A DNA stretch of 60,292 nucleotides from positions 1 to 60,292 of IMG/VR virus record IMGVR_UViG_3300023184_000002; one strand, given 5' to 3'. This document shows positions 26,030 to 44,889 of the stretch, piece by piece. The translations under genes and the position numbers were made by a program. Position 1 is the stretch's first letter. The number at the start of each line of letters is the position of its first letter. This DNA comes from a virus (taxonomy: Duplodnaviria > Caudoviricetes). Below the pieces are notes generated by a model. The model had not been told where the DNA came from. It searched no databases and saw only the letters and a program-made list of their open reading frames with translations.

Positions 26030-26422
26030 TTAGTTAGCCCGTGTAGCGTTGGCACAATTGACAACGGCTGTAACAACATTTCCGTCTGCTCCAGAAGCAG
26101 AAATCAATGAACCGACAACATACTTTGTGGTATCTGTAGTTGCAAGAGCAACTGCTTTACCTGTAGAACCAGTGCCAATTGCACTTGGTAGAGTAATCGC
26201 CGCACCAGCAACAATTTTGGTTCCACCAACAATTAGAACTTCTGCTTCTTGACCTGAAAGCGGAGCATTCTGAAGAACGCCAACAGGTACATCTGTAGCG
26301 GCCGCAATAGCAATTGCCTGACCACTGGAGTTCAACTTAACAAAGTTGTACTGTAAAGCGGAAAGGTCTGCACCTGCAACAAGTGTTATCTTTACGCTGT
26401 AATTACTGAATTCGTATGCCAT
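26030..26422 (-). CDS. Capsid decoration/cement protein (DUF2190-like)
   Basis: AGADLSALQYNFVK...PVGVLQNAP...G.TKIVAGAAI. Confidence 0.8.
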   Translation of the reverse strand: MAYEFSNYSVKITLVAGADLSALQYNFVKLNSSGQAIAIAAATDVPVGVLQNAPLSGQEAEVLIVGGTKIVAGAAITLPSAIGTGSTGKAVALATTDTTKYVVGSLISASGADGNVVTAVVNCANATRAN

Positions 26423-27199: not shown

Positions 27200-27302
27200 A
27201 ACATCCTCTGTTCTGAACATGCAGAATTAACTGCAAATCTTGACTTGCTCAAAATTAACACAAATCAATTACACTGAGGGTTTGACTTTGGGCGTGTCGG
27301 AT

Positions 27303-27497
27303 TTAACGACTCTGATAAAAACCAGTAGATGAACCGTGTTTAGAAACTTTGGTTGCACCCGTAATTACTCTTTTAGTTGCACCATTACCAATACGCAAAT
27401 CTAAAGTAGTTTGATTAGTTACACCAGTAACAATGGCATGATACACACGACCAGATTCACGATAACGAACTGAAGTGCCAACTTTAAAAATTTGCAT
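27303..27497 (-). CDS. Small SH3-like hypothetical protein (start MQIFKVG)
   Basis: Start overlaps the dps stop; FKVGTSVRY...AIVTGV. Confidence 0.55.
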   Translation of the reverse strand: MQIFKVGTSVRYRESGRVYHAIVTGVTNQTTLDLRIGNGATKRVITGATKVSKHGSSTGFYQSR

Positions 27498-27994
27498 TAC
27501 ATTCCCAAACTTGAACGAAGTTGCCAATCCCATTTTTTGTGCATGTCAATGCGTTCAGCAAGAAAATTAGCAATACCCTGCTCATTAGACGAGTTTGCAG
27601 AAGTGAAAGCCATGTTTAATGTATTAATCAGTTGAAGGTTTGCCTTCTGCAAATCTGATGCCATAGAACGGGGGTCATCAGCAGAACCAATAGTGGTTTC
27701 AGGCAAAGTTCGGTAAGCAATAAAATCAGACAACTTAAAAGGTGCATCCACCCCAAGTTTCAACATGTTTTCAGCCATAGGGTCAATTGAACTGTAAACA
27801 TCTTCATAAATTTCTTGAAAAAGTTCATGGTACTGCTGGAAATTAATGCCTTTAACATTCCAATGAAATCCGTGGGCACGGTGATAAAAAGTCACCACAT
27901 CAGCCAAAGTTGTACGCAAAAGCGAAGCAACATCAGCAACTGATTTATTCATAGCCCCAAAAGGAACATAATCATTATCGTTAGTCAGAAACAT
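27497..27994 (-). CDS. dps: Dps / ferritin-like DNA-protection protein
   Basis: HGFHWNVKG..FQQYHELFQEIY....D.MAE...HKKWDWQLRS Dps signature. Confidence 0.9.
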   Translation of the reverse strand: MFLTNDNDYVPFGAMNKSVADVASLLRTTLADVVTFYHRAHGFHWNVKGINFQQYHELFQEIYEDVYSSIDPMAENMLKLGVDAPFKLSDFIAYRTLPETTIGSADDPRSMASDLQKANLQLINTLNMAFTSANSSNEQGIANFLAERIDMHKKWDWQLRSSLGM

Positions 27995-28760
27995 CTTCGT
28001 CAGACACCTTCAAATCTTTTTTGGGCTTCTTTTTTTGCCCACCCATAACAGTATCCACATGAACAGTGTTCACTGTCGGACCCGACACGGTAGAAGTTCC
28101 ATCTTCTTTAGCAACTGGTAAATCAACTTCAAGACGCTGGGCACGACCACCAATTGAATAACCCATCAACTTGCCAGCCTTAACCATTTCCCAAGCCCAT
28201 GGTTCCCAAACAACACCAAGAAAAACAGTGTCTTTAGGAAAAGTAACATCTTCCATGGTTCCATCAGATTTTTGCATAGGAACTGAAACTTCGTAAGGCC
28301 ACGCCATGACTTCAACCCATTCACCAGCCACAACATCTTTATTGTGCTGAAGTCGGATTCGGCGGTCATCTTTACGCACATAATCCCAAACCGATTTTTG
28401 CAACTCTTCAGAACTTGTCCATTCACCATGAGCATCAACACGGTCAGGAACATACATTGGGCCTAAAGTGTATCGGTCTTCATTAACAGCCTTTGAAACT
28501 AAAGACATTTTTTGTACAGATTCTTCAGCATACTTGTCAAAAAATCCTTCATCATAAAGAGTTGAAACATCGTAATCAGCATTGTCCCATTCGGCAGGAA
28601 TAGCCATAACAATGTTTGAATTTTTTAAACTCTGATAAGTAGATTCTAAACTTTTCCATGCTTGCAAAGATTCGGCATCGGTAATGTATTGACTATCATT
28701 TTCCTTTATACCAGCCTGAACTTCCTGTGACATTAGTTCAAGAGTGCGACTATCAAGCAT
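27981..28760 (-). CDS. XkdF-like prohead serine protease
   Basis: YVPDRVDAHGEW...RLQH...FLGVVW...WEMVKAGKLMGYSIGG. Confidence 0.85.
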   Translation of the reverse strand: MLDSRTLELMSQEVQAGIKENDSQYITDAESLQAWKSLESTYQSLKNSNIVMAIPAEWDNADYDVSTLYDEGFFDKYAEESVQKMSLVSKAVNEDRYTLGPMYVPDRVDAHGEWTSSEELQKSVWDYVRKDDRRIRLQHNKDVVAGEWVEVMAWPYEVSVPMQKSDGTMEDVTFPKDTVFLGVVWEPWAWEMVKAGKLMGYSIGGRAQRLEVDLPVAKEDGTSTVSGPTVNTVHVDTVMGGQKKKPKKDLKVSDEDVSD

Positions 28761-30793
28761 TACTTACCTCCATTCTGTTTTAAAAATTCAGCATACCGAG
28801 AATCCAAATCCTCAACGCTAGTTTTATCACTTGCTTTGTTTACAAATGTTTTCCACAAATCATTATTAACAATTCTAATTGTACCACCACGGGAAGCAGT
28901 TGCAATCAATTCAGCAGGGGCACCTTCGGGACGAGTATTGTGATTAGTATCAAATAACACAAAATTATCAAACTGAGTAGCCATCTGAGGAATAATCGCT
29001 GAAACAGATTTATGATTATTCAAAAAATTGGGTGCAGGAACAAGACCACGATTAGGGTCATCTACAGACCTTTGCATGTTTTGTTTCCAAGCCAAATCAA
29101 TACTTGCACTTACATAACAACCATTAACTTTGTAACCAGCGTTACGGGCTTGTAGAATTTTTTTATTCAAACTGCTTGCACTTGAATTTCCAGTACCATC
29201 CAAGAAAACATCTTTACCAGAAGCAATAGCGGCCGCTTGAATTGATTTGCCAAGAATTGAAGATTCTTCATGTGTCCAACCAGCCACATCTGCTTTTCTA
29301 CCAGCATCTAAAAACACTTTAAAATCTGGCAATTTTGCTTTAATTTCGTCAGCATCAATTTTTACAGCCATGCCTTCTGCTGGCAAAGAAACTCCAGAAC
29401 TTTTAGCCTGTTCTAATGTTGCGGTTTTCTTTTGAATAGTTCCTTTACCAGAACCACCACCGCCACCCATCATAGTAAAAGTAGGGTCAGAAGATTTAGG
29501 AACACCTTGCAATGCTTCTGCAATAAGTTTATCATGCAACTCTTGGCGTTCAGGAGTTAACTTGTAACCACCGTGACCATCATCCATTAAATAATGCCAT
29601 AAACCAGAAGTCGAAGCAGTAATAGTTTCGCCACCAACTTCAATTGATTGCGGTTTACTTAAAACTTCAGGACGGTTACTGCCATAACCCCAATCATGAG
29701 TAGATAAATTTCCTTTAGCCCAAGCCCCATGCGAACTCTGGTCATGCTGACCAGCAAGATGTTTCATTAAAGGAATTCCATTTACCCAAGGAAGTGGGTC
29801 AACTAGAAGACGGCGGAACTGACGTTTATTTCCATTTAAACCATCAAAAAAACCTGCATCATTAACGATGGCTTCAGAAACATGTAAATTAAATAATTCA
29901 TCAGTGCTTGTTTTAAATTCAGTCAAAGTTGTGTGCAAAGCATTATGACGAGCCAAAACTTCTGGCAATTTTTGAGCATCAGGATTAGTGCGTATTAACT
30001 CGGCACCAGCATCATAACCTTCATTGTAATTCAAACGAATAGTGCGTTTATTCATAAATGAACCAATTTTTTTAAAATCAGATTCACTAACAGAAGAGGT
30101 TGTATGCGACCAAAGACCGTGGCTACGCTGGTCATGCTGACCTTGCAAATGTTTAGACATGCCATTTAATAAATCTTCAGGAATTACCCAAAACTTGCAC
30201 AAAGCCATGTGGTCAATTTGACCTTCAACAATCTCACAACCGCCACCGCCTTCATAAAAAATGCAATTGGCACACATCAAACCCTCATCAACAAACGGGT
30301 TATCCTCCATGTAATGTGCCCCGTTAGCACCGCAACCTTTATTAAACTTGCCAACGGTTTCGGTTAAAGATTCCAAAAATTCATAAATTGCAGATTGGGT
30401 TTCATTTAGTGCATCTTCAGGTTCAGGGTCGTTCATGTTCATTGGGGCATCTTTAGCCACCGCATCAAACTTTAAGGTGTAACCATCAACAGTCAAAATA
30501 GTGCTTTTAGAAACAGATTCAGGATAACCCAACTCGACATTGACCGTATCAATTACATCAGAAGGAATGCCATCAAACGCTTTACTTACAGCAACATTGT
30601 TTTCAACGCCAATTTCAATAACAGCCCGATTCCACTCATCGCCATTATGCCCATGGTCTAAACCACGAACCAACAACTCCGTTGTAACAAGATGGTGGGC
30701 TTGAACTTTTACAGAGTCAGAAACATCAGCATGCAACGACTTATGCAATGCTTCCAAATCAACATTACTTAAATTAGTTAAATCAAATGACAT
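28760..30793 (-). CDS. Tagged polyprotein F: HiPIP-like Cys4 domain, short tagged module, tagged zeta-toxin-family P-loop kinase
   Basis: CANCIFY...CEIVEGQI...CKFW; 2 tags; MGGGGGSGKGT, IDADEIK, HEESS, LDGTG; start MSFDL after SD GGAGGAG. Confidence 0.8.
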   Translation of the reverse strand: MSFDLTNLSNVDLEALHKSLHADVSDSVKVQAHHLVTTELLVRGLDHGHNGDEWNRAVIEIGVENNVAVSKAFDGIPSDVIDTVNVELGYPESVSKSTILTVDGYTLKFDAVAKDAPMNMNDPEPEDALNETQSAIYEFLESLTETVGKFNKGCGANGAHYMEDNPFVDEGLMCANCIFYEGGGGCEIVEGQIDHMALCKFWVIPEDLLNGMSKHLQGQHDQRSHGLWSHTTSSVSESDFKKIGSFMNKRTIRLNYNEGYDAGAELIRTNPDAQKLPEVLARHNALHTTLTEFKTSTDELFNLHVSEAIVNDAGFFDGLNGNKRQFRRLLVDPLPWVNGIPLMKHLAGQHDQSSHGAWAKGNLSTHDWGYGSNRPEVLSKPQSIEVGGETITASTSGLWHYLMDDGHGGYKLTPERQELHDKLIAEALQGVPKSSDPTFTMMGGGGGSGKGTIQKKTATLEQAKSSGVSLPAEGMAVKIDADEIKAKLPDFKVFLDAGRKADVAGWTHEESSILGKSIQAAAIASGKDVFLDGTGNSSASSLNKKILQARNAGYKVNGCYVSASIDLAWKQNMQRSVDDPNRGLVPAPNFLNNHKSVSAIIPQMATQFDNFVLFDTNHNTRPEGAPAELIATASRGGTIRIVNNDLWKTFVNKASDKTSVEDLDSRYAEFLKQNGGK

Positions 30794-30830
30794 TTGAACT
30801 CCTCCCCGAAAGAATAGCAAAAAAAATCAA

Positions 30831-30935
30831 CTATTCAGGTTTTGTCGGCTCAAGCAATTCTCTGGGTTTCATTCGTTCAGGAATACAATCAGGGTCAATA
30901 GGGTCAATGTTTTCAACTATTAAATAATCATCCAT
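30831..30935 (-). CDS. 34-aa acidic micro-ORF (MDDYLIVENIDPIDPDCIPERMKPRELLEPTKPE)
   Basis: Translated by hand; overlaps the stop of 30928..31770 and fills the gap; weak SD GAAGGTG. Confidence 0.4.
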   Translation of the reverse strand: MDDYLIVENIDPIDPDCIPERMKPRELLEPTKPE

Positions 30936-31770
30936 TTAAAACACCTTCTTGTACATAGAAATCACGCAAACCAGCACCTAACTCTGAACCCCAATAATGG
31001 TCAGCAAGCGTAACAAAATTTTGAGCAAACTCAACACCGTGGGCCGCATGAGGATTTTCTTCACTAATAGCCGTAGCGTAATGAGCAATTTCATGCAAAA
31101 GAGTGCTTTCGCTAAAACTGTAATGTGAATCTATTTTGAACTCGCTTGTGGTTTTTTCACGACCAGTACCGCGATTAATAATAACGCCAAACGCATAAGA
31201 ACCAGATAAAGTCATTGAATTAGAAGTTTTAATTTCTAAAGTTTTTCTTAACAAATTTCCACTACCAAAATTTTCAACAAACCAAGGGTCATCAATGACA
31301 GTAGTAATGTACTTTTTAACTCCAGATAAAGTGCCATTTAAATTTTTTTTACCCAAATCAGAAACAATAAATTTATGTGATTCTCTAGCCCAAACAGTGT
31401 GGGCTTTTCTGTAATCTTTAAACGCTCTCACATAATCATCTCGTGATTCAAAATCACTGCTTTTTGGTGCTTGTGGTTGATTTTTTCGCATTTCTTCGTA
31501 ATGGTCTTTACCCATTACGCTTTCTTTAAACAAGGCTTCAGCACCATAAATTTTATTTTGCAAAGGGTCGTATTTTTGTTTTCGCAAATCTAACATTTCT
31601 CTGGTCGTCAAACTGTGACCACCTTTAACAGCATTTAAATGTGTGCCCTGTGCCCAACTGCCATGGCTAGATTGGTCATGCTTGCCTTGCAAATGTTTTT
31701 CAACTTTAACACCATGTTTAACGCCCAAATCGGGGTAAACCACATCAAAAGTTACATCATCTAAAATCAT
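30928..31770 (-). CDS. Tagged protein E: HExxH zinc metallopeptidase-like
   Basis: KHLQGKHDQSSHGSW tag; LLHEIAHY...AAHGVEF. Confidence 0.75.
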   Translation of the reverse strand: MILDDVTFDVVYPDLGVKHGVKVEKHLQGKHDQSSHGSWAQGTHLNAVKGGHSLTTREMLDLRKQKYDPLQNKIYGAEALFKESVMGKDHYEEMRKNQPQAPKSSDFESRDDYVRAFKDYRKAHTVWARESHKFIVSDLGKKNLNGTLSGVKKYITTVIDDPWFVENFGSGNLLRKTLEIKTSNSMTLSGSYAFGVIINRGTGREKTTSEFKIDSHYSFSESTLLHEIAHYATAISEENPHAAHGVEFAQNFVTLADHYWGSELGAGLRDFYVQEGVLNG

Positions 31771-34754
31771 GCAACAGACACCTCAAACACCCCATTGCCA
31801 CCATCTTGATAAGTAAACAAATCCAAAACATTAGCCTGTTTCTCTAAACCTTCGTAGCGTAACAAGTATTTCCAAGTTGCCAAAAATGGCAAATTATGAC
31901 CACCATCACCTGCACCGCGTAGCGACCAATTTCCTTCAAGAATGTGCGAAACCTCATGCAACAAAACAAACTGGCTAATACCTGTAGGTTTGTAAAGTAG
32001 TACGGGAATGTTTCCGCCATGTAAAGGATGACCTTCTGCAACATCACCAGCCGTAATTCCAGCCTCAATACCGTCAACTAAGTATTCATTGTTTGTATCA
32101 GGAACCGCTTTCCAAACTCTTTTACCGTAACCGTATTTTTCAAAAACATGGTCAACATAAGCCACAATTTCTTGTTTATCAGTAAAAATGTGTCCTTGCC
32201 CAACTGCTTTTAAAGGTGCTGAATCAAGGCATAAACCCGAAGCAAACTCAATTTGTTTATCATCAGGGGCACCCGTTGGAACAACATCGCTCCAATCCGT
32301 ACTGTCTTTCCAAGGTATAGCGACTCCACCCAAATTTTTTGGTTTGTGAACAACGCCACCAGTTTTCGCCCAAGAACCATGGGAACTCTGGTCGTGCTGA
32401 CCTTGAAGGTGTTTAATTACATCATTTACACCAATAACTTGAACTCGCATTAATTTAACACTCTTGGTCACAAAATCTGTAGATTTAACACCCTGCCAAC
32501 CACCACTTAGAATTTGTTCCCCAAGCGTGTAATCTTTCCATCTTCCTTCTTGAAAAGGGTCGGTGGTATTGCTAGTAGTTGTATCAGATACAACATTTAA
32601 CACTTCATAAGGTTTTGGATAATTAGCAACAACATCACCTTCAAATCTGTCAGATAAATTTTGCAGTGCTTGAACATTTTCTGGCTTAATCAATGCTGGA
32701 TGGCTATAAGTGTAGATTTGGTTTCCCACTTGAACTTTTGCTGGATTATTTGTTGGCGTAACTTCATAACTAACCCTTGGTGGGCGTAACAAAACTTTTA
32801 TTTGGCGTTTTAAATGGTCCATAGAATCACGAAAATCGGGGTGACTAACATCCCAATCAAATCCAAAACTTTGCGAAGCCCAAGCAGAAGAACCATCAGA
32901 AACAGCAAACACACGAATGTTATTTAAACCCAACTCACGGGCAATTTGTTCAGATTGTTTATGAAATTCTTTACCCAAACCGTTACGCCGAAGTGCATCA
33001 CCAGCACCGTATTGTGTTGTGTCACCTTGCCAATTACCAAGAGTAAATCCAACTAAATCCATGGTTTTAGTTTTTGTATCAATGTCCCGTTGCCACTCAC
33101 CAGCAGGATTGCCTTGAGCATCAGTAACAGTACCTTTAACGGAAATTAGTGAACCATTTTTTTCAATAGAGCCAACATGAACTGACATTGATTTGCCATT
33201 AGAAGTTAATGTTTTTTCAAATAAAGATTTAATGTGTTCATCAGAATGTGCCCATGAACCGTGTGAACTCTGGTCGTGCTGACCTGCAAGATGTTTAAAA
33301 AAATCAGAATCAACAGGAACCTGAACAATTACTGAGGCTTCGGCAACTTCCCGTAAATCTTTTCCGCCCAAGCCATAATTTCCTCGTCCGTCATCTGATT
33401 CAACGGTTTCGGGGATGAGGCTATGTTTATAATTTCCTTTTTCGACTGTTCCACCAGTACCTCCTGTTTGAATCTCGTCAAAGTTTACGACATCCCAAAT
33501 ACTAATTTGGTTACGCCTTCTACCCAACGACATTGCTTGCTTCTTACTAACAATTTTGTCCGTAACATCCAAATGAACTTGTTGCTGGTCTTTTGGTATT
33601 TCAACCGTTACACCATTAACCGTTTTGGTTGTTTCGTGCCACACACCAAGATAAGCCCTACCAGAACCCAACTCTGATTTGTTCTTAATCAAAAACGCAC
33701 CGAGAATTTTGGCTCCCTTTTTCTCGTTAAAGAAATCTGATGCCGTGACTACAGTGCCAAACTTGTCACTGTTTCGAGATACCATGTAGCCATCTGGAGG
33801 CAGTGAGCCGTCTGTTAACTTGATTGATAAACCACCGTTTTCGGCTACTTGCGACAGCACATCATGAACGACTTCTGGTGCAACTTCGCTGTTAAACCTG
33901 CGTCCATGAGTTGATTGGTCGTGTTGACCTGAAAGATGTTTCTCAACTTCGGTTGATTTAATCTTAGCCTTTAACACCGCAATGTCAAATGCCAACATTT
34001 TTTTCATAGATTGTTTTACATCAGCACCCAAAGGAATGGAAGAAATACCAACAGCCTTATTCCAAGCCAAAACCACATCCACCAACTGCTCTTGTGGCAT
34101 GTCAACACGCAAAGCCTTTAATTTAATGCCTTTATGCTTAGGGGAAAGCCCAAGAAAAAGACCAGCGGCCCAACGATGATGACCATCAATAACATAATCA
34201 TCACTAGAAATAGTAATAGGAGTATCGTCAACCCCTTCTTTTTTCATCTTACGAAAAATTTTGCCAGATTTAGTAGCAGAAATTTCAGCCTGAATAGGGT
34301 GCAAACCAAAAGGCGTAACATCAACCAAATCAACTCGAACACCACGGGCTTGCATAGCCTTAATAAAAGCCTCTTGAGTATCGGGGGGAATCTGAGGCAT
34401 GTGGTCGCGCATAATGCCCAAATTGTCTTTAGTAAAATACTGCGTACCAAGGATTTCCAAATTAGTTAAATCAGGATTATCGGTACGGTCAGCCATAGCA
34501 TCCAACCATGCAGGAGCATCAATAGGGCTAACAATTCCCTCTTTACCAGCCACTACATTGTCATAAGCGGTTTGAATGGGATGTGGATAAGGATTACCTT
34601 CAGCAGTATTTTTACGGTCAACTGCTTGCCCATGATGACCAGACCAATTGCCGTGCGTTGCTTGGTCATGTTTGCCTTGCAAATGTTTAATCAAGACAGC
34701 ATCAGAAGATTCAACCACCCCAATAAATTTGGCGAGCCGTGCAATGCGTGACAC
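31767..34754 (-). CDS. Tagged polyprotein D: ParB/Srx-like, unknown domain, GNAT-like, HExxH peptidase
   Basis: 4 tags; VIDGHHRWAA; YLGVW...VHLDV...NQISIWD; LRRNGLGKEF; LLHEVSH...GHNLPF; GTG start with GGAGG. Confidence 0.8.
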   Translation of the reverse strand: MSRIARLAKFIGVVESSDAVLIKHLQGKHDQATHGNWSGHHGQAVDRKNTAEGNPYPHPIQTAYDNVVAGKEGIVSPIDAPAWLDAMADRTDNPDLTNLEILGTQYFTKDNLGIMRDHMPQIPPDTQEAFIKAMQARGVRVDLVDVTPFGLHPIQAEISATKSGKIFRKMKKEGVDDTPITISSDDYVIDGHHRWAAGLFLGLSPKHKGIKLKALRVDMPQEQLVDVVLAWNKAVGISSIPLGADVKQSMKKMLAFDIAVLKAKIKSTEVEKHLSGQHDQSTHGRRFNSEVAPEVVHDVLSQVAENGGLSIKLTDGSLPPDGYMVSRNSDKFGTVVTASDFFNEKKGAKILGAFLIKNKSELGSGRAYLGVWHETTKTVNGVTVEIPKDQQQVHLDVTDKIVSKKQAMSLGRRRNQISIWDVVNFDEIQTGGTGGTVEKGNYKHSLIPETVESDDGRGNYGLGGKDLREVAEASVIVQVPVDSDFFKHLAGQHDQSSHGSWAHSDEHIKSLFEKTLTSNGKSMSVHVGSIEKNGSLISVKGTVTDAQGNPAGEWQRDIDTKTKTMDLVGFTLGNWQGDTTQYGAGDALRRNGLGKEFHKQSEQIARELGLNNIRVFAVSDGSSAWASQSFGFDWDVSHPDFRDSMDHLKRQIKVLLRPPRVSYEVTPTNNPAKVQVGNQIYTYSHPALIKPENVQALQNLSDRFEGDVVANYPKPYEVLNVVSDTTTSNTTDPFQEGRWKDYTLGEQILSGGWQGVKSTDFVTKSVKLMRVQVIGVNDVIKHLQGQHDQSSHGSWAKTGGVVHKPKNLGGVAIPWKDSTDWSDVVPTGAPDDKQIEFASGLCLDSAPLKAVGQGHIFTDKQEIVAYVDHVFEKYGYGKRVWKAVPDTNNEYLVDGIEAGITAGDVAEGHPLHGGNIPVLLYKPTGISQFVLLHEVSHILEGNWSLRGAGDGGHNLPFLATWKYLLRYEGLEKQANVLDLFTYQDGGNGVFEVSVA

Positions 34755-34816
34755 AAAACCTCCTGAAATACTAGATAAGAATACCTCAGAAGCATTACCT
34801 CAAAAGGTCAACTCGC

Positions 34817-35053
34817 TTAATTATCGGCAGGGTCAATGCTGTAAAAAGGTAATTTCATAAGATTATCCATAAGTTCAGGTGAATAAGCAGTAAGTTTTTT
34901 GCCACCAATTGCTTCAGAATACATTTTATCAAAATCTAAAGATTGTTCAGGGGTAGGATTTTCGGGATAAAAGCCAGCAACATTTTTATACTTTAAAACC
35001 CAAGCATCATAAACGGAACTCATAGTTGCCATTTTTGTATCTCTATTCATCAT
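34817..35053 (-). CDS. Small untagged protein inside the effector block
   Basis: 78-aa ORF overlapping the stop of polyprotein C. Confidence 0.55.
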   Translation of the reverse strand: MMNRDTKMATMSSVYDAWVLKYKNVAGFYPENPTPEQSLDFDKMYSEAIGGKKLTAYSPELMDNLMKLPFYSIDPADN

Positions 35054-38000
35054 AAATCCCTTTACTTATAATCTGCCTAGGTGCAACATTTAATTTCTTT
35101 TTATAATGGTATCTTTGATTTGATAAAATGCTTTTTCCAAGCCACATGGTCAAAGCATTTCCCTGCCCATCTGTGCCATCGCCGTAACCAACCATTGCAA
35201 CATCATAAGGAGTTGGGAAATCTGAAGCCAAAGAATCCCCATTTAACCGAGTAATCATAGTTTCAATGTCGTCCCTAACTGGTTTATTTTTTGGTTCATT
35301 TGGAATAACAAATAAACGGTCAGTTAAATCTTTTCTTACATTTCGCCAATCTTCTGGATGGCTTCCCGACCAATCGTAGCCCATCTTTGCCCATGTATAG
35401 GCACCATTCCAAGCCGTATCTAAAGTAATGGCATTGAACCCGTGGCTGATGTAATAATTTTCTGATTGATTAATAAAAGCGTTTCCAAAACCAGTATTTT
35501 GGTATTGAGATTCCCAAATTTGTAAAACATCATGTGAAACAACTCCAGTGCTTGTGTTTAAAGTTCTTTCAAATTCACCAATTTGGTCGTCAAGTTGATT
35601 AAACAAACTACCTTCTACTTTAATTAAACCATCATTTAAATCAACTTCAACATTCAAAATCCTGCTTTTAATAGTGTCATCATGTCCTGTTTTATCTGTG
35701 TACTCGTAATTCATGTTATAAATTTCTTTAAGGCCTGGTTTTATTCTGGTTGCTATGTCGTCACCAGCATCCAATAAAATTCTTCCAGCGTGTCTTTGAT
35801 AAAAATCATCTGTCAACTGTTCGGTAAGAAGCGAATCCCCTTGATGTTGAACATCACGAGCGTCCAAATAATTTTGTAACTCTTGTCGCCAATAAGCATT
35901 GCCTTTAGTATCAGCCCAAGCCCTAGCCCTATCTGCTATCTCAACAGAAGCATCTGATAACCCTTGAATCCAAGTCAACCAAGCCACGCTTGGGCCTTTA
36001 TCTTTCATACTCAAAATCATTTGTTGGCGTTCGGCACCCCATTGACCATACTTACCCTCAGCAACAGGTCCACCGTTTGCCCAATTACCATGCGAACTTT
36101 GGTCGTGCTGACCAGCAAGATGCTTAATTAAATTTAAAGGTGGTACAACAAAAATTGTTTTAGCAACAGGTTTATCTAAGCCTTCACCAAAATCACAAAT
36201 GTCTTCAACCGTGTAAACAGTATTGTCCTCATCAGTTTTGCTTTTCAATACAGGATTTTGCCCGTATTCGGATTGTCTATCAAAACTCCATTGACAATCA
36301 TAAGCATAAGTTTGAGTTGCCTGATTGCCACTTTTGCCTTCACTCAAAAACCAATCAGCAAACGCTTCAGCAAAACCTTCCTTGGAATTTGTTTGCCCGT
36401 ATTTACTTAAACCCAACTTCCCGTCAACAGCCCTATTCCAAAGGCTTTGAGTTGAAGCGGAACTTGCATCATTATTTATTTGATTAATTTGCATTTGACG
36501 AGCATGTCCCCATTCATGAGCCAACCAGTATTGCCCTTGATGATTTACATTTTGGTAAGATTGAGTAAAACGCCCAAATTTTCTTTTGTTTGGTTTATCA
36601 AAAAATCCAGTTGAAGCAACATAAATTTGTACACCCATTTTTTCAGCAACTTTATCCCAACCACCAAGATGTAATCCTTTTACACCTTCTGGAACAGGAT
36701 TGCCACTTGCAGTATCAGCATTCAATAAGGCTTCATCCCCAAAAAACATTCTAACAACAGTATTTTTAGGCAAAGGAGCATGTTGACCCAACTTATTTAA
36801 TTGAAATAAAACAGTTTCAACTTGTTTTTGAATTTCTGGAGTGTATTTTGTATTTTGACTGGGGTCGCTACTTGATGTTCCCTTTAAAGATTGCCAATAA
36901 GAATTAAAATTAGCAACAATTCTGACATCATGGATAGTAGTTTCAAACGCCCATGGCAAAGATTTATCATCTACTGGTTTCCAGCCAGCAATCGGTTTAA
37001 ATTTTTTAGACCATTCATGGTTAGCCCATGAGCCGTGAGTTGACTGGTCGTGCTGACCTGCAAGATGCTTTTGTAAACCACCAAACTCAATAACAATTGG
37101 AGGAACATTAGAATCAATAGATTCTATAACATGAAAACCTGCAATAGATTTGTTCATCAAATTTTTTGCCAAATTAGCAAAATCTAAATGATAAAAAATC
37201 TTTTTATAATTGGGATTATCTTTATCTAACTCCCAAGCAGTAAACATTTCAGCAAAAAATTCACGATGATTAGTTTTACCGTATTTTGAAACTATAGGGC
37301 TAGAACTAAGTTGTTCAAAATCTGCTGTTGCTTGAAAATAATACCTTTGGTCAACAGCATGACCAAACTCGTGAATAATTGTTGCTTGTAAACCGTTATA
37401 GTCATTGCCAACATACTCGTTACCAGAAAAACTTGAAGTAGAAACAAACTCGTCATGAATTACTTCTTTCCAAGTTTTTGCTGTTCCGCTACCTAAACGG
37501 GAAAAAACTGCTGGATTTAAAACAATTACACTGCCTTTTGGTGTGTCATGCCAATTCACATCAGGAATCCACTTTTCAAACAAAGAAGTGATTTCATCTG
37601 CTGTGGGAGCAAATAATTTTTCTTCATTAAATTGTGATGCCCTGTATTTTCTTCGTGCATTACCCTGACTACCAATTGAAGTTACAGTTTCACCACCAAC
37701 GCCCACCCGATTTTCAAGGTCAATAATAAAAGAAACATCGTGCATTGGATACTTTGAAAGCAACTCATTCATGTAACCAATTGCTTCATTTTTTCTTGCA
37801 ACAATGTCTTTGGCGTATTTAATGTTTTGTAACCCTGAGTCATCAAAGCGTGGAACATAAAATTTGCTCCCACTTGGATGTTCGTAACAATCGTATCGCC
37901 CAACAACTTTGGTTAATTCAAAAGTCCCGTGTGCCCAATTACCGTGTGAACTCTGGTCATGTTGCCCTGACATGTGTTTGGTAAAAGCGTCAACAACTGT

Positions 38001-38165
38001 CCAAGTGCCAACTTTTTGCCATTTATCAAATAAACCAACAGTGCTGGTTCTGCCATTAGTTTGGCGTAAATACCCGTATGGATAACCGTCAGCGTCAACG
38101 GAATCAAAAATTAACTCGGCTCCGTCAGCCCTTACAGCGTAAACACTACCTTTGGTTAGTTCCAT
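35043..38165 (-). CDS. Tagged polyprotein C: two zincin (HExxH) peptidase-like modules and a GNAT-like module
   Basis: 3 tags; HEFGH...SKYGKTNHREFFAE; HEWGH...SKYGQTNSKEGFAE; YQNTGFG...GAYTWAKMGYDW. Confidence 0.8.
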   Translation of the reverse strand: MELTKGSVYAVRADGAELIFDSVDADGYPYGYLRQTNGRTSTVGLFDKWQKVGTWTVVDAFTKHMSGQHDQSSHGNWAHGTFELTKVVGRYDCYEHPSGSKFYVPRFDDSGLQNIKYAKDIVARKNEAIGYMNELLSKYPMHDVSFIIDLENRVGVGGETVTSIGSQGNARRKYRASQFNEEKLFAPTADEITSLFEKWIPDVNWHDTPKGSVIVLNPAVFSRLGSGTAKTWKEVIHDEFVSTSSFSGNEYVGNDYNGLQATIIHEFGHAVDQRYYFQATADFEQLSSSPIVSKYGKTNHREFFAEMFTAWELDKDNPNYKKIFYHLDFANLAKNLMNKSIAGFHVIESIDSNVPPIVIEFGGLQKHLAGQHDQSTHGSWANHEWSKKFKPIAGWKPVDDKSLPWAFETTIHDVRIVANFNSYWQSLKGTSSSDPSQNTKYTPEIQKQVETVLFQLNKLGQHAPLPKNTVVRMFFGDEALLNADTASGNPVPEGVKGLHLGGWDKVAEKMGVQIYVASTGFFDKPNKRKFGRFTQSYQNVNHQGQYWLAHEWGHARQMQINQINNDASSASTQSLWNRAVDGKLGLSKYGQTNSKEGFAEAFADWFLSEGKSGNQATQTYAYDCQWSFDRQSEYGQNPVLKSKTDEDNTVYTVEDICDFGEGLDKPVAKTIFVVPPLNLIKHLAGQHDQSSHGNWANGGPVAEGKYGQWGAERQQMILSMKDKGPSVAWLTWIQGLSDASVEIADRARAWADTKGNAYWRQELQNYLDARDVQHQGDSLLTEQLTDDFYQRHAGRILLDAGDDIATRIKPGLKEIYNMNYEYTDKTGHDDTIKSRILNVEVDLNDGLIKVEGSLFNQLDDQIGEFERTLNTSTGVVSHDVLQIWESQYQNTGFGNAFINQSENYYISHGFNAITLDTAWNGAYTWAKMGYDWSGSHPEDWRNVRKDLTDRLFVIPNEPKNKPVRDDIETMITRLNGDSLASDFPTPYDVAMVGYGDGTDGQGNALTMWLGKSILSNQRYHYKKKLNVAPRQIISKGIYDE

Positions 38166-38167
38166 AA

Positions 38168-39352
38168 TTAATACTCTACCACCTTAATTCCCTTGGGAAC
38201 AAGGGGACTAATGTCATCAAAACTATCTGATGGAATGTAAATAGATTCAACATCACTCAACTTAACACCATCATGAATCTGGGCTTCAAAATAAGAACCT
38301 TCATTGAGATACCCAATTTCATAAGTATCATTATTCCAACCCTCATCTTTAGCAATGTTGTACAAAATCCTGTCAGATGCTCGCCAAGCATCAAAAGGAG
38401 TTATTTCTTTTTGAGTCATAGAAATAGGTACGCAACCAGTTGACAACGAATCCCCAACCGACATAGTTGTCCGAGATTTAACATTATCTTTAAACACAAC
38501 CCGAATAGCCCCATACTGCTCAGGTCCATTAATCAAAATGCTTTCATGAAAATCATCTTCAGCCACATAGCCATAAATAGGTCTTTTAGAAACAGGCTCC
38601 GACAAAGGCATACTTTGAGAACGCAACTCACCAGCGATACGACCAATTTTGCTGTACGCACCATTGCTTGTACCTGTTTCAAATTGTGTTTTAAACCTTG
38701 GGTCATCACTTTTCAATAATGTAATAAATGACTTTTCATCCATAGCCTGACAAACTTTTCCATGTTCTTGCAAAGATTTTAAATCATCAGCAATAAGACT
38801 TTGATAATCCAACTCAGAAGAATCAAAACTAGCAAAAAGGGCTTGTTTAACAACTTCATCAGATACCCTACGAAGCAATGCTTCATACATCACAATTGGA
38901 TAATCTTTTCCAGTTACAAAACTAGGATTGATAACTCCTTTAAAAGTGTTATCAAAAACTCCACCAGTTTTGAGAAAAACAGCATCACGAGGATAAGCAT
39001 CTTTAACTTGCTGTTGCAACTCTTTTCCAAGAGCAGACCTAGCAAAAGTATCACCATGAAGAATTTTAACTAAAAAATCTTCTGAACGACTACCACCAAA
39101 ACCACCTGCACCGCTATCTATTTTGTCAGCATAAGTTTTAGCCAATTTTTTAACAGCATTTTTAAAAGTTGTTGTTTCGGCAAAATCGTTAACTGAACCA
39201 TGTGCCCAATTGCCGTGCGTGGATTGGTCATGCTGACCCAAATAATGTTTTAATAAAAGGGAACGCCCAAGAATTTGTTCTGCTCGTAAACGATGACGCA
39301 AAGCCTCAGCACTATCAACTTCAGACAAGAAAGAATCAGTAAACCTATCCAT
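38168..39352 (-). CDS. Tagged protein B: DUF3626-like, probable ADP-ribosyltransferase fold
   Basis: KHYLGQHDQSTHGNW tag; RFKTQFETGTS, RPIYGY, QYG, RTTMSVGDS, YFEAQIHDGV. Confidence 0.7.
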   Translation of the reverse strand: MDRFTDSFLSEVDSAEALRHRLRAEQILGRSLLLKHYLGQHDQSTHGNWAHGSVNDFAETTTFKNAVKKLAKTYADKIDSGAGGFGGSRSEDFLVKILHGDTFARSALGKELQQQVKDAYPRDAVFLKTGGVFDNTFKGVINPSFVTGKDYPIVMYEALLRRVSDEVVKQALFASFDSSELDYQSLIADDLKSLQEHGKVCQAMDEKSFITLLKSDDPRFKTQFETGTSNGAYSKIGRIAGELRSQSMPLSEPVSKRPIYGYVAEDDFHESILINGPEQYGAIRVVFKDNVKSRTTMSVGDSLSTGCVPISMTQKEITPFDAWRASDRILYNIAKDEGWNNDTYEIGYLNEGSYFEAQIHDGVKLSDVESIYIPSDSFDDISPLVPKGIKVVEY

Positions 39353-42314
39353 TTTCCTGTCCCGTCACTAAAAGGTCTAACACAATCCTAGTTTTATCCA
39401 ACCTTTTTGCTCCCATAACCACAAAAGTAGTATTCGGGGCAATAACGAACTCACCTTCTTCATCATTACCCATCGTTGCACCATGAGTACCTGCTGGCAT
39501 GTGAATGTTTGAAAAAACTGTTGCAGATGCTTTAAAAGAATCATTAACACTTTGATGCACGCTATTAGGAGCAGAAGTTGATGTAAAACCTTTTGCTTCA
39601 AAAGTTTTTCCAACCAACCCATTAATGTCTTCCTCAGACATTGTAGAAACTTGTTGTCTAAAAAGGCTTGCCCCTGAACTCCACCTAGTAACCGTCAAAT
39701 CTTGTGTTGTTTCTGTTTCATACAAAGCATTTTTCAAAGAATCAATTTGAGCAATTCCTTGTTCTTTAGGAATTTGTTCATTGTAAATAATTCTAACTGT
39801 GTCATCAATGTTGCCACTACGAAGGTAATCATTCATCCATGAGTACCCAAAGCCAACATAATTATTTCTAGCATCCATTGTTGTTGAATCAAGTCTTGAA
39901 AGGTCTAAGGCTGGAAGGTCATTCAACGAAGCAGATTTAAAACTTTCAGCACCTGCCCAATTGCCGTGCGTAGATTGGTCATGTTGACCTTGCAAGTGTT
40001 TAGACACTGCATCAGGGTTTTGAACAATTAAAGCACCAGCATTTAAAACAACCATTTCTCGGTCAGGCAAACTTCTATCGGCTGGGTCATAAAGCATTGG
40101 ACTGTCATTAATTGCGTCATAGCCCATTGCCAAAGCCATAAGATTTCTAGTTGTTAATTTATCAGTAAAAAACCAACTTGTTGAAAAATCTGTTAAAGCC
40201 GTATGACGAAGTAAACTAATTTGAGATTCTAGTAATCCACTATTTGCCAATACCCAGTTTGCTTCAGAAGAAGGAATAGTTAAAATTTTTGCATTAGGTT
40301 TAAAAGCCATTTTAACTATTTGTTTTTCATCACCTTTATAACCCCAAATTTCAGCCTCTTTTTTCGTATGCGCACCATAAAGACCAATTCCATTTCTACC
40401 CATAGAAATGTAAGGCAATTTTGAAGCCATAAATTGTTTGATTTTATCTTTAGCAGATAATCTAATGTTGTCTGAAGTTTCCAAATCAAAAGCAGAACCT
40501 TGCTGAAAAGTTCGCCAAAATTCCATACCCTGTGAAGTATCACCAAAAGTAGGTTTACCAGTTTTGCCTGTGGCTTTTAAAACATCTTGCAAAGTTTTAC
40601 GCCAAACATCAAGGCTGTCGTATGGTTTATTTGCGTTAATTATTGACGCAAGTTGCTGAATGCTAATTTCATTTGACCCATCACCATCAGCCCAGTTGCC
40701 ATGCGAACTTTGGTCATGTTGCCCTGCGAGATGTTTAACAACACCAGCCCAACCCTCGGCATCTCTTGTCAAAGAAAAAGAATGCTCAATTTTAATTCCA
40801 TTTGGAGCATAACTTCGAGCCAAATTAAGCATTGCCGTGGCAACTCCTTGGCGTTGAAATTTTGGCTCAACAAAAACATTTTCAATTGAAGCATCTGGAA
40901 AGTTTGTATTATGAGAAGCGTTTAAATAACCTATTTGTCTTTTTCCACCAGAAAAAGCAACATAAGCCTGAGTTTCCATGTCAATACCGCCATCGGAAGA
41001 CCGAAAATAATTATCTTGCATTAAATAAATTGTTTGTCCAGATGGGCTGGAGTATTCTGCTGTTACTGAATTTATGAAATCATTTGTTTCATTTTTATTT
41101 GGAAGAATAACTTTTACATTTGAAATTCTTTGTTGTATTTCCTGTTCTTTAGGGGAACGGTCATTACTGTGTGCCCAATCGCCGTGTGAACTCTGGTCAT
41201 GCTGACCTGCAAGATGTTTTTGAACTAAATTTTCTTGAATAAACGGACGGTCATTAAACAACCAATAAAACTTGTTGCCCAAATCTTGACTTTTAGATTT
41301 AGCAATTTCATCTGAAACAACATGAGGTTCAATCATTTTGACTTCAACCACGGTAAATTCTTTGTCTGGTTGTTTAGCCCATAAAGTTACATTGTAATCG
41401 CCCCATCTGTCTTGCCCAGCACCTCGGTCAAATACAAATTTAACATCAGGTGATTCAAATGAACTCAAATCACCCGAAACCAAACTTTCATAAAATGTTT
41501 TTGCTTTTGCTTGGTATTGTTCTTTAGGAACACCTTCAATAACATTTGCACCATAATCCCACATTTGATACCAAGTTTCATCAACATTTCCATTTGCATC
41601 AACATGCTGACGCATTCTTGCACCTGCTGGAAATCTAGCCCAAAAAGGATGTTTAACTTTAGTTACACCAACAACTTCAAATTTTCCACTTGTAATAACT
41701 TCAGCATCTTGTTGAAACATTGCATCTTTAAATGCCCAGCCTTTAGCACCAGCCTGAATTTTTATTAAAACTGAATTATTTCCATTACCCCTACCAGTTG
41801 CATACCACTCGGCCGCACCTTGAGAACGAGTAGTAGATACTAAAGGCATGTCAATAACATCGCCAGCCTCAAGTTGAGTAAAATCTTGTTTTAACCCAGT
41901 TGTATCATCAGATTGTAAACCACGCCACAAAACAGGTTGGGGCTTACTATTTGCAATAGCCTTTAATAGTCCTTTAACTTCATTACGATTAGGGGCACCC
42001 CAACCACGCTCAAGCATGTATTCCAAATAACCACCTTTGTCGTAAGGAGTTTCTGGAACGGGCAAACCTAAAATTTGACATGCGTATTTGCGAAATAATT
42101 CAACAAATTGAGTTCCATCAGGGCCATGTTCCCAAGCGTATTGTGCCCTAGCAGTAAACCCACCACCATTGCGAGGACTAGGAGGAATTGGGTCTAAAGG
42201 ATTCCACGCACTTATTTCATGTGTAATGTTATCAGCCCAAGAACCATGAGTTGATTGGTCATGCTGACCAGCAAGGTGTTTATTTACGGGAACTACAACA
42301 TAAACAGATTTCAT
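39345..42314 (-). CDS. Tagged polyprotein A: ART, GNAT, ART-like and VIP2-type ART modules
   Basis: 4 tags; LWRG/VSTT/QDAEVI; VEPKFQRQGVATAML; GIGLY...GYDAI...VVLN; VTR/FTSTS/EGEFVI. Confidence 0.85.
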   Translation of the reverse strand: MKSVYVVVPVNKHLAGQHDQSTHGSWADNITHEISAWNPLDPIPPSPRNGGGFTARAQYAWEHGPDGTQFVELFRKYACQILGLPVPETPYDKGGYLEYMLERGWGAPNRNEVKGLLKAIANSKPQPVLWRGLQSDDTTGLKQDFTQLEAGDVIDMPLVSTTRSQGAAEWYATGRGNGNNSVLIKIQAGAKGWAFKDAMFQQDAEVITSGKFEVVGVTKVKHPFWARFPAGARMRQHVDANGNVDETWYQMWDYGANVIEGVPKEQYQAKAKTFYESLVSGDLSSFESPDVKFVFDRGAGQDRWGDYNVTLWAKQPDKEFTVVEVKMIEPHVVSDEIAKSKSQDLGNKFYWLFNDRPFIQENLVQKHLAGQHDQSSHGDWAHSNDRSPKEQEIQQRISNVKVILPNKNETNDFINSVTAEYSSPSGQTIYLMQDNYFRSSDGGIDMETQAYVAFSGGKRQIGYLNASHNTNFPDASIENVFVEPKFQRQGVATAMLNLARSYAPNGIKIEHSFSLTRDAEGWAGVVKHLAGQHDQSSHGNWADGDGSNEISIQQLASIINANKPYDSLDVWRKTLQDVLKATGKTGKPTFGDTSQGMEFWRTFQQGSAFDLETSDNIRLSAKDKIKQFMASKLPYISMGRNGIGLYGAHTKKEAEIWGYKGDEKQIVKMAFKPNAKILTIPSSEANWVLANSGLLESQISLLRHTALTDFSTSWFFTDKLTTRNLMALAMGYDAINDSPMLYDPADRSLPDREMVVLNAGALIVQNPDAVSKHLQGQHDQSTHGNWAGAESFKSASLNDLPALDLSRLDSTTMDARNNYVGFGYSWMNDYLRSGNIDDTVRIIYNEQIPKEQGIAQIDSLKNALYETETTQDLTVTRWSSGASLFRQQVSTMSEEDINGLVGKTFEAKGFTSTSAPNSVHQSVNDSFKASATVFSNIHMPAGTHGATMGNDEEGEFVIAPNTTFVVMGAKRLDKTRIVLDLLVTGQENG

Positions 42315-43318
42315 GCCTGTTCCCCCGAATACCTCATTTGACCAGTTTTAATCCACTCAGCATCATTCAAACCACGGTCAGGAGGCACCAGAAACGCTGT
42401 ACAGCGACAATGAGGATGAGCAGGTGGCATAAGTAGCCCATTGTCAAAAGCCATGTCCCAACGCACCTGAACTCCATTTAAAGGGGCACATTTATCGCAA
42501 GGGGGTCCACCTAAATTGTTTTTGTAAACTGTTTGCCATTGCTTCATTGAATCACCAGCAACCCAACCACCATCAACAGCCTGTTGCCAAGCCAATTGAC
42601 GACCCATGTTTTGAGCAATTTGAATTTCGGTACGGGCAATCATTGTGGCACGGGCACGAATCAATTTTTGACGGTACCTATCAGTCAATAAATCAGTTTT
42701 TTCAATTGCTTTTTCGTGTTTCAAACCTTGTTTTAACAAATTTTTGTAAGTGCGGTCATAAAATTTGTCAACTGCCTGTGCCCAACGAGGATGCAAGCCA
42801 ATAACTTGACGCAATTTTTTAGCCGTGTAAGGGACGGAAATTTCTTTACTAAAAGAATCGCTAATAATCTGACGAATTGCCAAACGCATTGAATCGTTAA
42901 TGGCTGTAACTAAACGCCCAGCCTGACGCTCTGCATACAAATCCGCTACAGGATTATGGATGTTAAAATTGAACTCACCATTGGTTCTACCCGTTAAAGT
43001 TTGTTCATTACCCCAATCGGATGTTGCTTGAATAATTGGCTGTATTTCTTGACCAGCAATAACACCAGCATGATTAATAACAGCCGTAATTGATTCTCTA
43101 ATAATCTGTTGAATTGCGTCAACATTAATTGTTAATAACGCTTGCTCCAGCAAATCGGGTTGCAGATTAATAATTGCTGAAGCCAACGCATCAGCATCAG
43201 CAACTCGCCCAGCCCGATACAAAGCATTACGGATAATGTTGTATAACTGCTCTTCAGTTACATTAAAAACTGGAGGTGCAGGTACCGAAGATTTGGCTTT
43301 CCTGACTAATGGCATCAA
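42311..43318 (-). CDS. MuF / SPP1 gp7-like minor head protein
   Basis: RATMIARTE, KQW, CDKCAPLNG, PPAHPHCRC; directly after the portal. Confidence 0.9.
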   Translation of the reverse strand: MMPLVRKAKSSVPAPPVFNVTEEQLYNIIRNALYRAGRVADADALASAIINLQPDLLEQALLTINVDAIQQIIRESITAVINHAGVIAGQEIQPIIQATSDWGNEQTLTGRTNGEFNFNIHNPVADLYAERQAGRLVTAINDSMRLAIRQIISDSFSKEISVPYTAKKLRQVIGLHPRWAQAVDKFYDRTYKNLLKQGLKHEKAIEKTDLLTDRYRQKLIRARATMIARTEIQIAQNMGRQLAWQQAVDGGWVAGDSMKQWQTVYKNNLGGPPCDKCAPLNGVQVRWDMAFDNGLLMPPAHPHCRCTAFLVPPDRGLNDAEWIKTGQMRYSGEQA

Positions 43319-44817: not shown

Positions 44818-44889
44818 GTTCACATCCTTACAAAAAAATAAACCTTCTTGCATAATACATTGCAAAAAGCACTATCTTGAGGTGGCTCG

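Follow-up and report, generated by a model that had tools for sequence, protein, structure and literature searches.

A repeated peptide tag before cargo modules in the head gene block of a probable actinophage: a candidate loading and processing signal for injected effectors

Tagged genes of the window

The virus record IMGVR_UViG_3300023184_000002 (Duplodnaviria; Caudoviricetes) is a complete genome with direct terminal repeats and 41% GC, and was analysed over its whole 60,292 bp, which we call the window. Between its genes for a MuF-family head protein and an XkdF-type prohead protease lie six consecutive minus-strand open reading frames (ORFs; 28760-42314), spanning 13,555 of the 60,292 bp, or 22.5% of the genome. 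These six ORFs carry multiple copies of a short peptide, here called the tag, that can be written as [VIL]-x-K-H-(x-x)-G-x-H-D-Q-x-[ST]-H-G-x-W-A and is usually followed by Gly-rich sequence. The tag, the putative cargo modules that it precedes and its candidate role in the phage head are the subject of this report. A pattern search of the translations found 15 copies, distributed 4+1+3+4+1+2 over the ORFs, as the initial annotation had it; all of its approximate tag positions agree with ours to within about 20 nt.

39345-42314, minus strand, tagged ORF 1, 989 amino acids, tags at residues 12, 366, 527 and 772
38168-39352, minus strand, tagged ORF 2, 394 amino acids, tag at residue 35
35043-38165, minus strand, tagged ORF 3, 1040 amino acids, tags at residues 63, 366 and 681
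31767-34754, minus strand, tagged ORF 4, 995 amino acids, tags at residues 23, 272, 487 and 781
30928-31770, minus strand, tagged ORF 5, 280 amino acids, tag at residue 25
28760-30820, minus strand, tagged ORF 6, 686 amino acids, tags at residues 223 and 353

42234-42281, minus strand, Tag 1, KHLAGQHDQSTHGSWA
41172-41219, minus strand, Tag 2, KHLAGQHDQSSHGDWA
40689-40736, minus strand, Tag 3, KHLAGQHDQSSHGNWA
39954-40001, minus strand, Tag 4, KHLQGQHDQSTHGNWA
39203-39250, minus strand, Tag 5, KHYLGQHDQSTHGNWA
37932-37979, minus strand, Tag 6, KHMSGQHDQSSHGNWA
37023-37070, minus strand, Tag 7, KHLAGQHDQSTHGSWA
36078-36125, minus strand, Tag 8, KHLAGQHDQSSHGNWA
34641-34688, minus strand, Tag 9, KHLQGKHDQATHGNWS
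33894-33941, minus strand, Tag 10, the most divergent copy, without Trp, KHLSGQHDQSTHGRRF
33249-33296, minus strand, Tag 11, KHLAGQHDQSSHGSWA
32367-32414, minus strand, Tag 12, KHLQGQHDQSSHGSWA
31651-31698, minus strand, Tag 13, KHLQGKHDQSSHGSWA
30107-30154, minus strand, Tag 14, KHLQGQHDQRSHGLWS
29717-29764, minus strand, Tag 15, KHLAGQHDQSSHGAWA

The tag is confined to these six ORFs, as had been claimed: a hidden Markov model (HMM) of it, run on all window ORFs of at least 70 amino acids in six frames, gives the same 15 matches at 33.4-51.5 bits, and the next best match scores 1.8 bits. At the DNA level, the back-translated 45-nt pattern has 12 matches in the window, against 0 in each of 100 dinucleotide-preserving shuffles; the remaining three copies deviate at one pattern position each (KHM, KHY, and RR instead of xW). 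The proposal that each copy heads a module of its own was borne out by pairwise BLASTP, in which the 15 modules and their leaders have only the 16-20-residue tag in common, so the tag does not belong to a repeated domain. Exceptions to this tag-only similarity are two weakly similar pairs, namely two HExxH modules, and M8 with M11. In five of the six ORFs the first tag comes no later than residue 63, no ORF has a tag at its end, and the modules are 130-360 amino acids long.

Codon usage and structure modeling both bear on the nature of the tag. Between pairs of tags, codons at the eight invariant residues are identical at a frequency of 0.58, versus 0.57 expected from the codon usage of these ORFs, and mean DNA identity between tags is 72% over 48 nt. 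Synonymous sites are thus randomised, so the copies are old and conserved as a peptide, rather than products of recent duplication or gene conversion. An AlphaFold2 model of ORF 4 (residues 1-520, 21-row alignment) has confident folds at residues 58-238 and 321-436, with all three tags in segments (1-57, 239-320 and 437-520) whose predicted local distance difference test score is below 50. The tag of a natural fusion to an S78-type prohead protease, from a second phage group described below, likewise falls in a low-confidence stretch (166-197), after the S78 domain. Because all four modelled tags lie in low-confidence linkers and the modules share nothing else, the models suggest that the tag is a short linear motif within flexible linkers of about 80 residues.

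The content of the modules had been predicted in the initial annotation, and this prediction stood in part. Family matches were obtained for ADPrib_exo_Tox (E 8.9e-12), GNAT (E 1.6e-6), Zeta_toxin (E 1.4e-19) and an ATLF-like peptidase (E 1.3e-7). HExxH motifs are present in four modules, as expected, with the SprT-like/TIGR04338 match below curated cut-offs, and the expected ParB/Srx-like fold is weakly indicated. The tallies of four ADP-ribosyltransferase (ART) and three GNAT modules could not be verified. Six modules have no Pfam family even at E ≤ 1. ORF 1 combines the GNAT domain (residues 443-510) and the ART domain (ADPrib_exo_Tox; 814-966) with two modules of no assigned family, while ORF 2 is one 360-residue module that resembles DUF3626 weakly (19.6 bits, under the cut-off) and also matches phrog_8314. 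ORF 3 holds two HExxH modules, one of the ATLF peptidase family, and one module with no family, found in 14 of 16 complete arsenals (sets of tagged ORFs, treated below). ORF 4 has the ParB/Srx-like module (16/16 complete arsenals), two modules of no assigned family (the first in 14/16) and an HExxH module; ORF 5 has the SprT-like/TIGR04338-like HExxH metallopeptidase; and ORF 6 has the zeta-toxin-like kinase at residues 435-624.

The only untagged module in the window is residues 1-222 of ORF 6 (30155-30820, minus strand), which has a C-terminal Cys4 motif and weak HiPIP-like signals (Pfam E 0.1; Atlas score 0.85), and otherwise has no Pfam family at E ≤ 1. It occurs in 16/16 complete arsenals and always heads its ORF, with no upstream tag in 45 of 45 matches. 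A protein of Actinomycetia phage DSL-LC01 annotated as 'capsid maturation protease' has a C-terminus homologous to the Cys4 part of this module.

Pfam and PHROGs place the six ORFs in a head gene block, with the order C5 DNA methylase, S-adenosylmethionine (SAM) methyltransferase, Portal_Mu, Phage_Mu_F, the six ORFs, Peptidase_S78_2, Ferritin-like, scaffold-like, decoration-like and major capsid protein (MCP).

45512-46507, C5 cytosine methylase
44890-45525, SAM methyltransferase
43324-44865, minus strand, portal protein (Portal_Mu, E 4.1e-39)
42311-43318, minus strand, MuF-family head protein, directly upstream of tagged ORF 1 (Phage_Mu_F, E 6.8e-9)
27981-28760, minus strand, XkdF-type prohead serine protease, directly downstream of the last tagged ORF with a 1-nt overlap (Peptidase_S78_2, E 2.8e-12)
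27497-27994, minus strand, ferritin/Dps-like protein, untagged (Ferritin-like)
26429-27220, minus strand, scaffold-like gene, untagged (phrog_13547)
26030-26422, minus strand, decoration-like gene, untagged
25039-26016, minus strand, major capsid protein, untagged
47832-48008, minus strand, WhiB-family gene (PF02467, 55.9 bits versus a cut-off of 23.6)

MuF is a separate ORF here, not fused to a toxin, and its stop overlaps the start of ORF 1 by 4 nt. Flanked by the protease and scaffold genes, the ferritin/Dps-like gene is part of the head module. In the XkdF protease, the core and a basic C-terminal tail are conserved and the N-terminus varies. Its homologues share a C-terminal tail of 45 amino acids after the core, with DGPxVNxVHVDTxM followed by NPKKKKPK; their N-terminal 80 amino acids vary, and some relatives have cargo modules there instead (ParB-like, RelA/SpoT-like). 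The WhiB gene, together with the tag-bearing Actinomycetota contigs mentioned below, indicates that the host is probably a low-GC actinobacterium, which would make this an actinophage.

Several 4-base palindromes are strongly avoided in the window (1-60292): GATC, AGCT, CCGG and ATAT have 0 occurrences each (about 160, 215, 98 and 135 expected, respectively), and ACGT has 20 (about 186 expected). Restriction sites thus seem to be strongly avoided, in a phage that also encodes its own C5 methylase and SAM methyltransferase. The Asp codon of the tag is GAC in 378 of 395 tags of low-GC contigs, versus 33% GAC elsewhere in the same ORFs; we rejected this bias as a nucleotide-level signal, because GATC is fully avoided and GAT-CAR would create one.

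Relatives, a second phage group and natural fusions

In IMG/VR the tag pattern was found at 106 loci on 91 contigs, with 448 core matches, and in the best 30 pieces by copy number the copies are clustered on one strand. Two spacing variants occur, KHxxGxHDQ (299 copies) and KHGxHDQ (166 copies). The tag-bearing contigs range from 40% to 69% GC. Among 97 tag-bearing pieces including the window, a homologue of the window MuF is present in 66, of the portal in 58 and of XkdF in 30; 80 pieces have at least one homologue of the window head genes or of its two methyltransferases, and 17 have none. Most tag-bearing IMG/VR pieces belong to the window's own phage group. The tie to head modules holds in these relatives, where 153 of 163 tags at the 16 loci holding both genes lie between MuF and XkdF. 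Outlying tags were inspected in two cases (c1705 and L072), and each belongs to a small ORF with XkdF on one side and the scaffold gene on the other. A metagenome-assembled genome (MAG) contig of 67% GC also has MuF, a tagged ORF and XkdF in order.

The 16 complete arsenals of this group share a conserved core, comprising the ParB-like module (16/16), the untagged ORF 6 module (16/16) and two others (14/16 each). ORF 2 homologues are found in 10/16, and most other window modules in only 1-5 of the 16. Neighbours vary: the ParB-like module is preceded by the untagged module 26 times, by another window module six times, by a module foreign to the window three times and by the ORF start six times, while the SprT-like module follows an ORF start 16 times and assorted modules 20 times. 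The tag is therefore portable, as initially claimed: it heads unrelated modules, and from phage to phage a given module family can stand behind another neighbour or at the start of an ORF, with modules shuffled among phages.

We built a 32-column profile from 110 tags and searched 1.84 billion cluster representatives with HMMER, finding 1,037 tag-bearing representatives at E ≤ 0.001, 321 at E ≤ 1e-10 and 29 at E ≤ 1e-30. In 68% of tagged representatives the first tag comes in the opening 70 amino acids, and the 10th percentile of the distance from the last tag to the C-terminus is 159 amino acids. Some of these proteins are extreme: (i) P0006 (7,059 amino acids) has 19 tag copies, most of them KHGTGDQSPHGNWA; in 16 copies Gly replaces the central His, which is therefore not universal. 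(ii) P0008 (2,201 amino acids) has nine tags and nine ART domains. (iii) P0009 (1,880 amino acids) has eight tags, with six ART domains and a GNAT. Pfam annotation of 66 representatives gave 14 ADPrib_exo_Tox, 8 GNAT, 3 SprT-like, 2 ATLF and 2 DUF3626, and one each of InPase, ART-PolyVal, PARP, DRAT, Peptidase_S78_2, Peptidase_S78 and Phage_Mu_F. Our module diversity counts exclude single-linkage clustering, which collapsed into one cluster of 388. The tag is already present, unannotated, in a public family, PHROG 2859 ('unknown function'), at profile positions 270-295.

Searches outside uncultured viruses returned little. In one genome from each of 185,579 prokaryotic species, the long-variant pattern had 0 matches and the short-variant pattern had three, all on Actinomycetota MAG contigs; with the tag near-absent from these genomes, we rejected it as a prophage or cellular motif. 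Against deposited phages, megablast of the whole region gave no match, and tblastn with ORF 4 matched only ParB-like domains (449 records). A word-indexed homologue search with the ORF 5 tag region gave three candidates, and is too insensitive for so short a motif.

A second group of five tag-bearing loci (L030, L056, L092, L033 and L003; 48-58% GC) has a different set of head genes, with TerL, Phage_portal (PF04860), Peptidase_S78 and an HK97-type Phage_capsid, and no MuF. Its capsid domain starts at MCP residue 159, and no separate scaffold gene was found. Apart from the tagged proteins and the ferritin gene, phmmer finds nothing shared between this group and the window. Here the prohead protease itself is tagged, with the S78 domain at residues 17-166 and tags from about residues 177, 329 and 586 of the same protein; further tagged ART/GNAT proteins are encoded downstream of the ferritin gene (L030 8051-8593). 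In these S78-tag fusions (L030 3620-5830), one module also matches DUF7249 (PF23907, E 2.6e-11).

Such fusions of head proteins to tags recur in the databases. The S78 part of the fusion matches 57 proteins of 405-1290 amino acids, and most of those with a full S78 match have the tag at residue 164-168; the domain ends about 11 amino acids before the tag in L030, L056, L003 and about 30 database proteins. Among the best 150 representatives, four have S78 followed by the tag and four have MuF followed by the tag about 20 amino acids after the domain end, fused MuF forms always having the tag after MuF. In P0036, the tag directly follows XkdF. In P0179, a ferritin domain is fused to an S78 prohead protease, behind three tags. 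By analogy, the ferritin/Dps-like protein is probably itself head cargo, reminiscent of the ferritin cargo of encapsulins.

Further S78-ferritin fusions were seen among database relatives (P0185 and P0188-P0193, besides P0179). A sister motif, K[YF]xxDQxRDxxGR[FW] with Gly-rich sequence behind it, occurs in P0185, P0186, P0187, P0191, P0193, P0042 and L003 1050-3725. In the S78-ferritin fusions it starts at residue 173, about the tag position (164-168) of related fusions, and in P0042 it co-occurs with tags. The tag may thus belong to a larger class of linker motifs. By tblastn, the sister motif has no match in 50,697 deposited phage records.

Comparison with known systems

Polyvalent proteins, in the parts of PMC5512222 that treat them, combine 2-15 unrelated conflict domains (ART, GNAT, zincin peptidases, ParB-like), are encoded with late/head genes and often adjoin or are fused to MuF; they are predicted to be head-packaged, injected and processed, with MPTase domains proposed as processors. 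The window ORFs resemble them in being phage-encoded in a head context, between MuF and the prohead protease, and in combining unrelated domains (GNAT with ADPrib_exo_Tox in ORF 1, the ATLF-like with a second HExxH module in ORF 3, and ParB-like with HExxH in ORF 4). The polyvalent signature Pfam models (ART-PolyVal, InPase, MPTase, DdrB-ParB, LPD) are matched by none of the window proteins, which match ADPrib_exo_Tox, ATLF and SprT-like instead; two of these polyvalent-named families, ART-PolyVal and InPase, are each found in one of the 66 tag-bearing relatives. Unlike the polyvalent proteins described, those here have a conserved peptide before their cargo modules, and arsenals without HExxH exist. 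In the text of PMC5512222, HDQ, GRW, GRF, linker and motif terms and 'disordered' are absent, although its supplements may hold alignments with the tag. The initial annotation knew of no characterised system using this tag, and we also found no description of it: the string 'GQHDQ' is in no paper searched (supplements could show the motif), and strings of the RDxxGRW-type sister motif gave nothing relevant in the literature. Such polyvalent arsenals are already known; the tag is the newly described element.

MuF toxins were reportedly treated by Jamet et al. in 2017. Where PMC5512222 and PMC9503650 deal with polyvalent effectors and with effectors carried on MuF, portal or the capsid-processing serine peptidase, these proteins are taken to be packaged in the head and injected, and processing of them is expected to be necessary. 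The ART, Nudix and GNAT domains of the fused effectors match the cargo found here in kind (PMC9503650). The passages of PMC9503650 on these effectors describe no tag at the junction of the fusions. Unlike MuF- or protease-fused effectors, the window has MuF and the protease as separate genes and most of its cargo is carrier-free.

The capsid-targeting sequence (CTS) of T4, found in internal proteins IPI-III and Alt, is N-terminal, loads these proteins into the prohead, is cleaved by the prohead protease and can be transferred to foreign cargo; the proteins are ejected with the DNA. The tag is like the CTS in preceding its cargo N-terminally. Unlike it, the tag has no L/I-x-E core in its consensus and no sequence similarity to the CTS, and the protease here is Peptidase_S78_2, or S78 in the second group, rather than gp21 as in T4. 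The T4 signal is found once per protein, whereas the tag is repeated up to 19 times within polyproteins and is common to phages with different head-gene sets. Encapsulin cargo-loading peptides and the C-terminal tail of the HK97 protease are also short disordered peptides, which address cargo into an HK97-fold shell, and ferritin-like proteins are typical encapsulin cargo, which recalls the ferritin-like gene in the window head module. However, these peptides are C-terminal, single and specific to one shell protein, with no sequence similarity to the tag, and unlike encapsulin ferritin cargo, the window ferritin-like protein has no tag.

Proposed role of the tag and its alternatives

We consider it fairly probable that the tag directs injected polyvalent effectors into the head, marks them for processing, or does both. 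A narrower form, in which it serves both loading and processing and is probably read by the prohead protease, is put forward tentatively, as falling a little short of an even chance. During prohead assembly, the head-maturation machinery, most likely the prohead serine protease, would recognise the tag, and this recognition would draw untethered tagged proteins into the prohead. The tag would also be a cutting point, at which polyproteins and carrier fusions (MuF-tag-cargo, protease-tag-cargo) would be split into single modules that, at 130-360 amino acids in the window, may be small enough for ejection with the DNA. It would be a functional counterpart of the T4 CTS, repeated internally. That the proteins are packaged, cut and injected, and what reads the tag, we infer from the neighbouring genes and from how effectors that are polyvalent or fused to MuF or the protease have been interpreted in print.

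Three observations point in this direction. (i) ORFs start just before a tag and never end with one, so the tag stays with the downstream module after gene fission and serves each module; being kept in this way, it is more than a separator, since a pure separator would not need to be. (ii) Tags are found after carriers that are already head proteins (S78, XkdF, MuF), where addressing would be redundant but release useful. (iii) The tag is nearly identical across differing portal, MCP, scaffolding and protease families, and a prohead serine protease is the only head function found to adjoin tags in both groups, as it also does in the 67%-GC MAG contig.

Other results weigh against a protease-read signal of the head. 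First, the substrates and the enzyme give no match to it: the MCP, scaffold, portal, MuF and protease of the window have no tag-like sequence (nothing above 1.8 bits with the tag HMM), so the protease, if it is the reader, reads something different there, and S78 and XkdF are different Pfam families. Known prohead-protease sites also require less than an invariant 16-residue motif, for example L/I-x-E in T4 and S/A/G-x-E in phiKZ-like phages. The tolerance of a 2-residue indel between KH and G within one phage, evident from 61 contig pieces that carry both spacing variants, is easier to reconcile with a docking motif in two parts than with a rigid active-site register. In the AlphaFold2 model of the natural S78-tag fusion, the tag is left as an unconfident loop, not docked on S78, an outcome that says little about binding. 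Second, the association with head genes has exceptions. In L094, L060 and L077, cargo is found on the XkdF N-terminus with no intervening tag, and on one 96.8-kb IMG/VR contig (L071 307-2628 and L041 2689-4401) tagged ORFs, one with a DRAT-like ART, lie among glycosyltransferase and aminotransferase genes; they are not beside recognisable head genes and so break the head-module rule. Third, tblastn with tag queries of 29 and 30 amino acids found no tag in the 50,697 deposited phage records, in a search where a 37-residue query from a deposited phage recovered its own record. Complex prediction for XkdF residues 75-259 (28-row alignment) with a 32-residue tag alignment (score 0.01, mark 0.32) made no call either way.

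A more sweeping version can be framed, in which the tag is a universal, lineage-independent address label that alone directs any protein into the head, where the prohead protease would release that protein, working with XkdF- and HK97-type machineries alike, and in which the tag and KYSxDQxRDxxGRF both belong to a wider class of cargo signals. The tag could then be put to use directly for loading cargo. We regard this version as doubtful, though not far-fetched.

The alternative that fares best keeps the loading and drops the cutting: the tag would be purely a capsid-loading or retention peptide, binding the scaffold, the capsid inner surface, the portal or packaged DNA, with no cleavage at the tag and with polyproteins that remain whole or are cut at other sites. 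Its position N-terminal to modules, its retention after gene fission and the head-module context all suit such a peptide. So does the existence of portable loading peptides (the T4 CTS, the HK97 protease C-terminal tail and encapsulin cargo peptides), and in the second group the tag follows the S78 domain just where HK97 gp4 has its targeting tail. However, one tag per polypeptide would be enough, yet nearly every module has one; targeting would be redundant at junctions behind carriers that are incorporated in the head anyway; and the tag is nearly identical despite the different portal and MCP families and scaffold arrangements of the two groups. We therefore think loading without cleavage unlikely.

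Processing might instead take place after injection, with polyproteins packaged whole and cut at the tag in the host, by a co-delivered HExxH metallopeptidase or a host protease. The window arsenal has four HExxH modules, at least one HExxH is found in 15 of the 16 complete arsenals of its group, and a cassette-borne peptidase would explain why the tag is conserved across head types. Processing of polyvalent proteins by MPTase domains has also been proposed (PMC5512222, in the part on these domains). Yet HExxH is absent from the tagged ORFs of one of the 16 complete loci of the window's group, L100, and of three of the five loci of the second group, though loci may be incomplete, and there is no universal HExxH family, the commonest occurring in 9/16. 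Since arsenals without HExxH exist, a cassette-borne metallopeptidase cannot be the general processing enzyme; a host protease would need to be conserved across the hosts of phages of 40%-69% GC, and tags at ORF starts would have no purpose. This alternative seems to us quite unlikely.

It is more improbable still that the tag acts through intrinsic chemistry, its His/Asp-rich sequence binding metal and either making the cargo self-associate as a compact body inside the head or catalysing its own cleavage. Three invariant His and an Asp within 11 residues of the window copies are compatible with this, as are the ferritin-like gene and the Cys4 HiPIP-like module in the same gene block, and a function of this sort would be independent of head lineage. 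On the other side, the central His is replaced by Gly in most copies of P0006 (16/19), the sister motif KYSxDQxRDxxGRF at the same position is often without His, AlphaFold2 gives the tag no compact fold and the tag profile has no match among PDB sequences at E ≤ 10. Hydrolysis by nickel-type (S/T)-x-H chemistry was dismissed, because K-T-H and S-P-H variants are incompatible with it. Least probable of all is a recombination junction, kept as a shared border sequence for cassette swapping like the pre-toxin motifs of polymorphic toxins: extensive mosaicism, with the same module families behind different modules or an ORF start, would suit it, but synonymous sites in the tags are random and their DNA identity is 72%, so selection is on the peptide, and module shuffling more probably results from the tag than explains why the tag is kept.

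How phages choose the proteins that are loaded into the head and injected is known in detail for few model phages, and the loading and processing of polyvalent proteins are conjectural. From the tag, module borders can be predicted in proteins whose domains mostly lack a family, and the tag defines a searchable catalogue of putative injected effectors, with 1,037 cluster representatives that include arrays of nine ADP-ribosyltransferases. Were the tag alone enough for loading, it could serve as a compact means of filling phage capsids with cargo. The share of the window given to tagged genes (22% of a 60-kb genome) suggests that these phages, whose hosts are probably Actinomycetota, invest heavily in pre-made weaponry. 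If the doubtful lineage-independent address label did hold, it would be the organising principle of a large, fast-shuffling injected repertoire in uncultured actinophages, with at least 1,037 protein clusters and up to 19 modules per protein.

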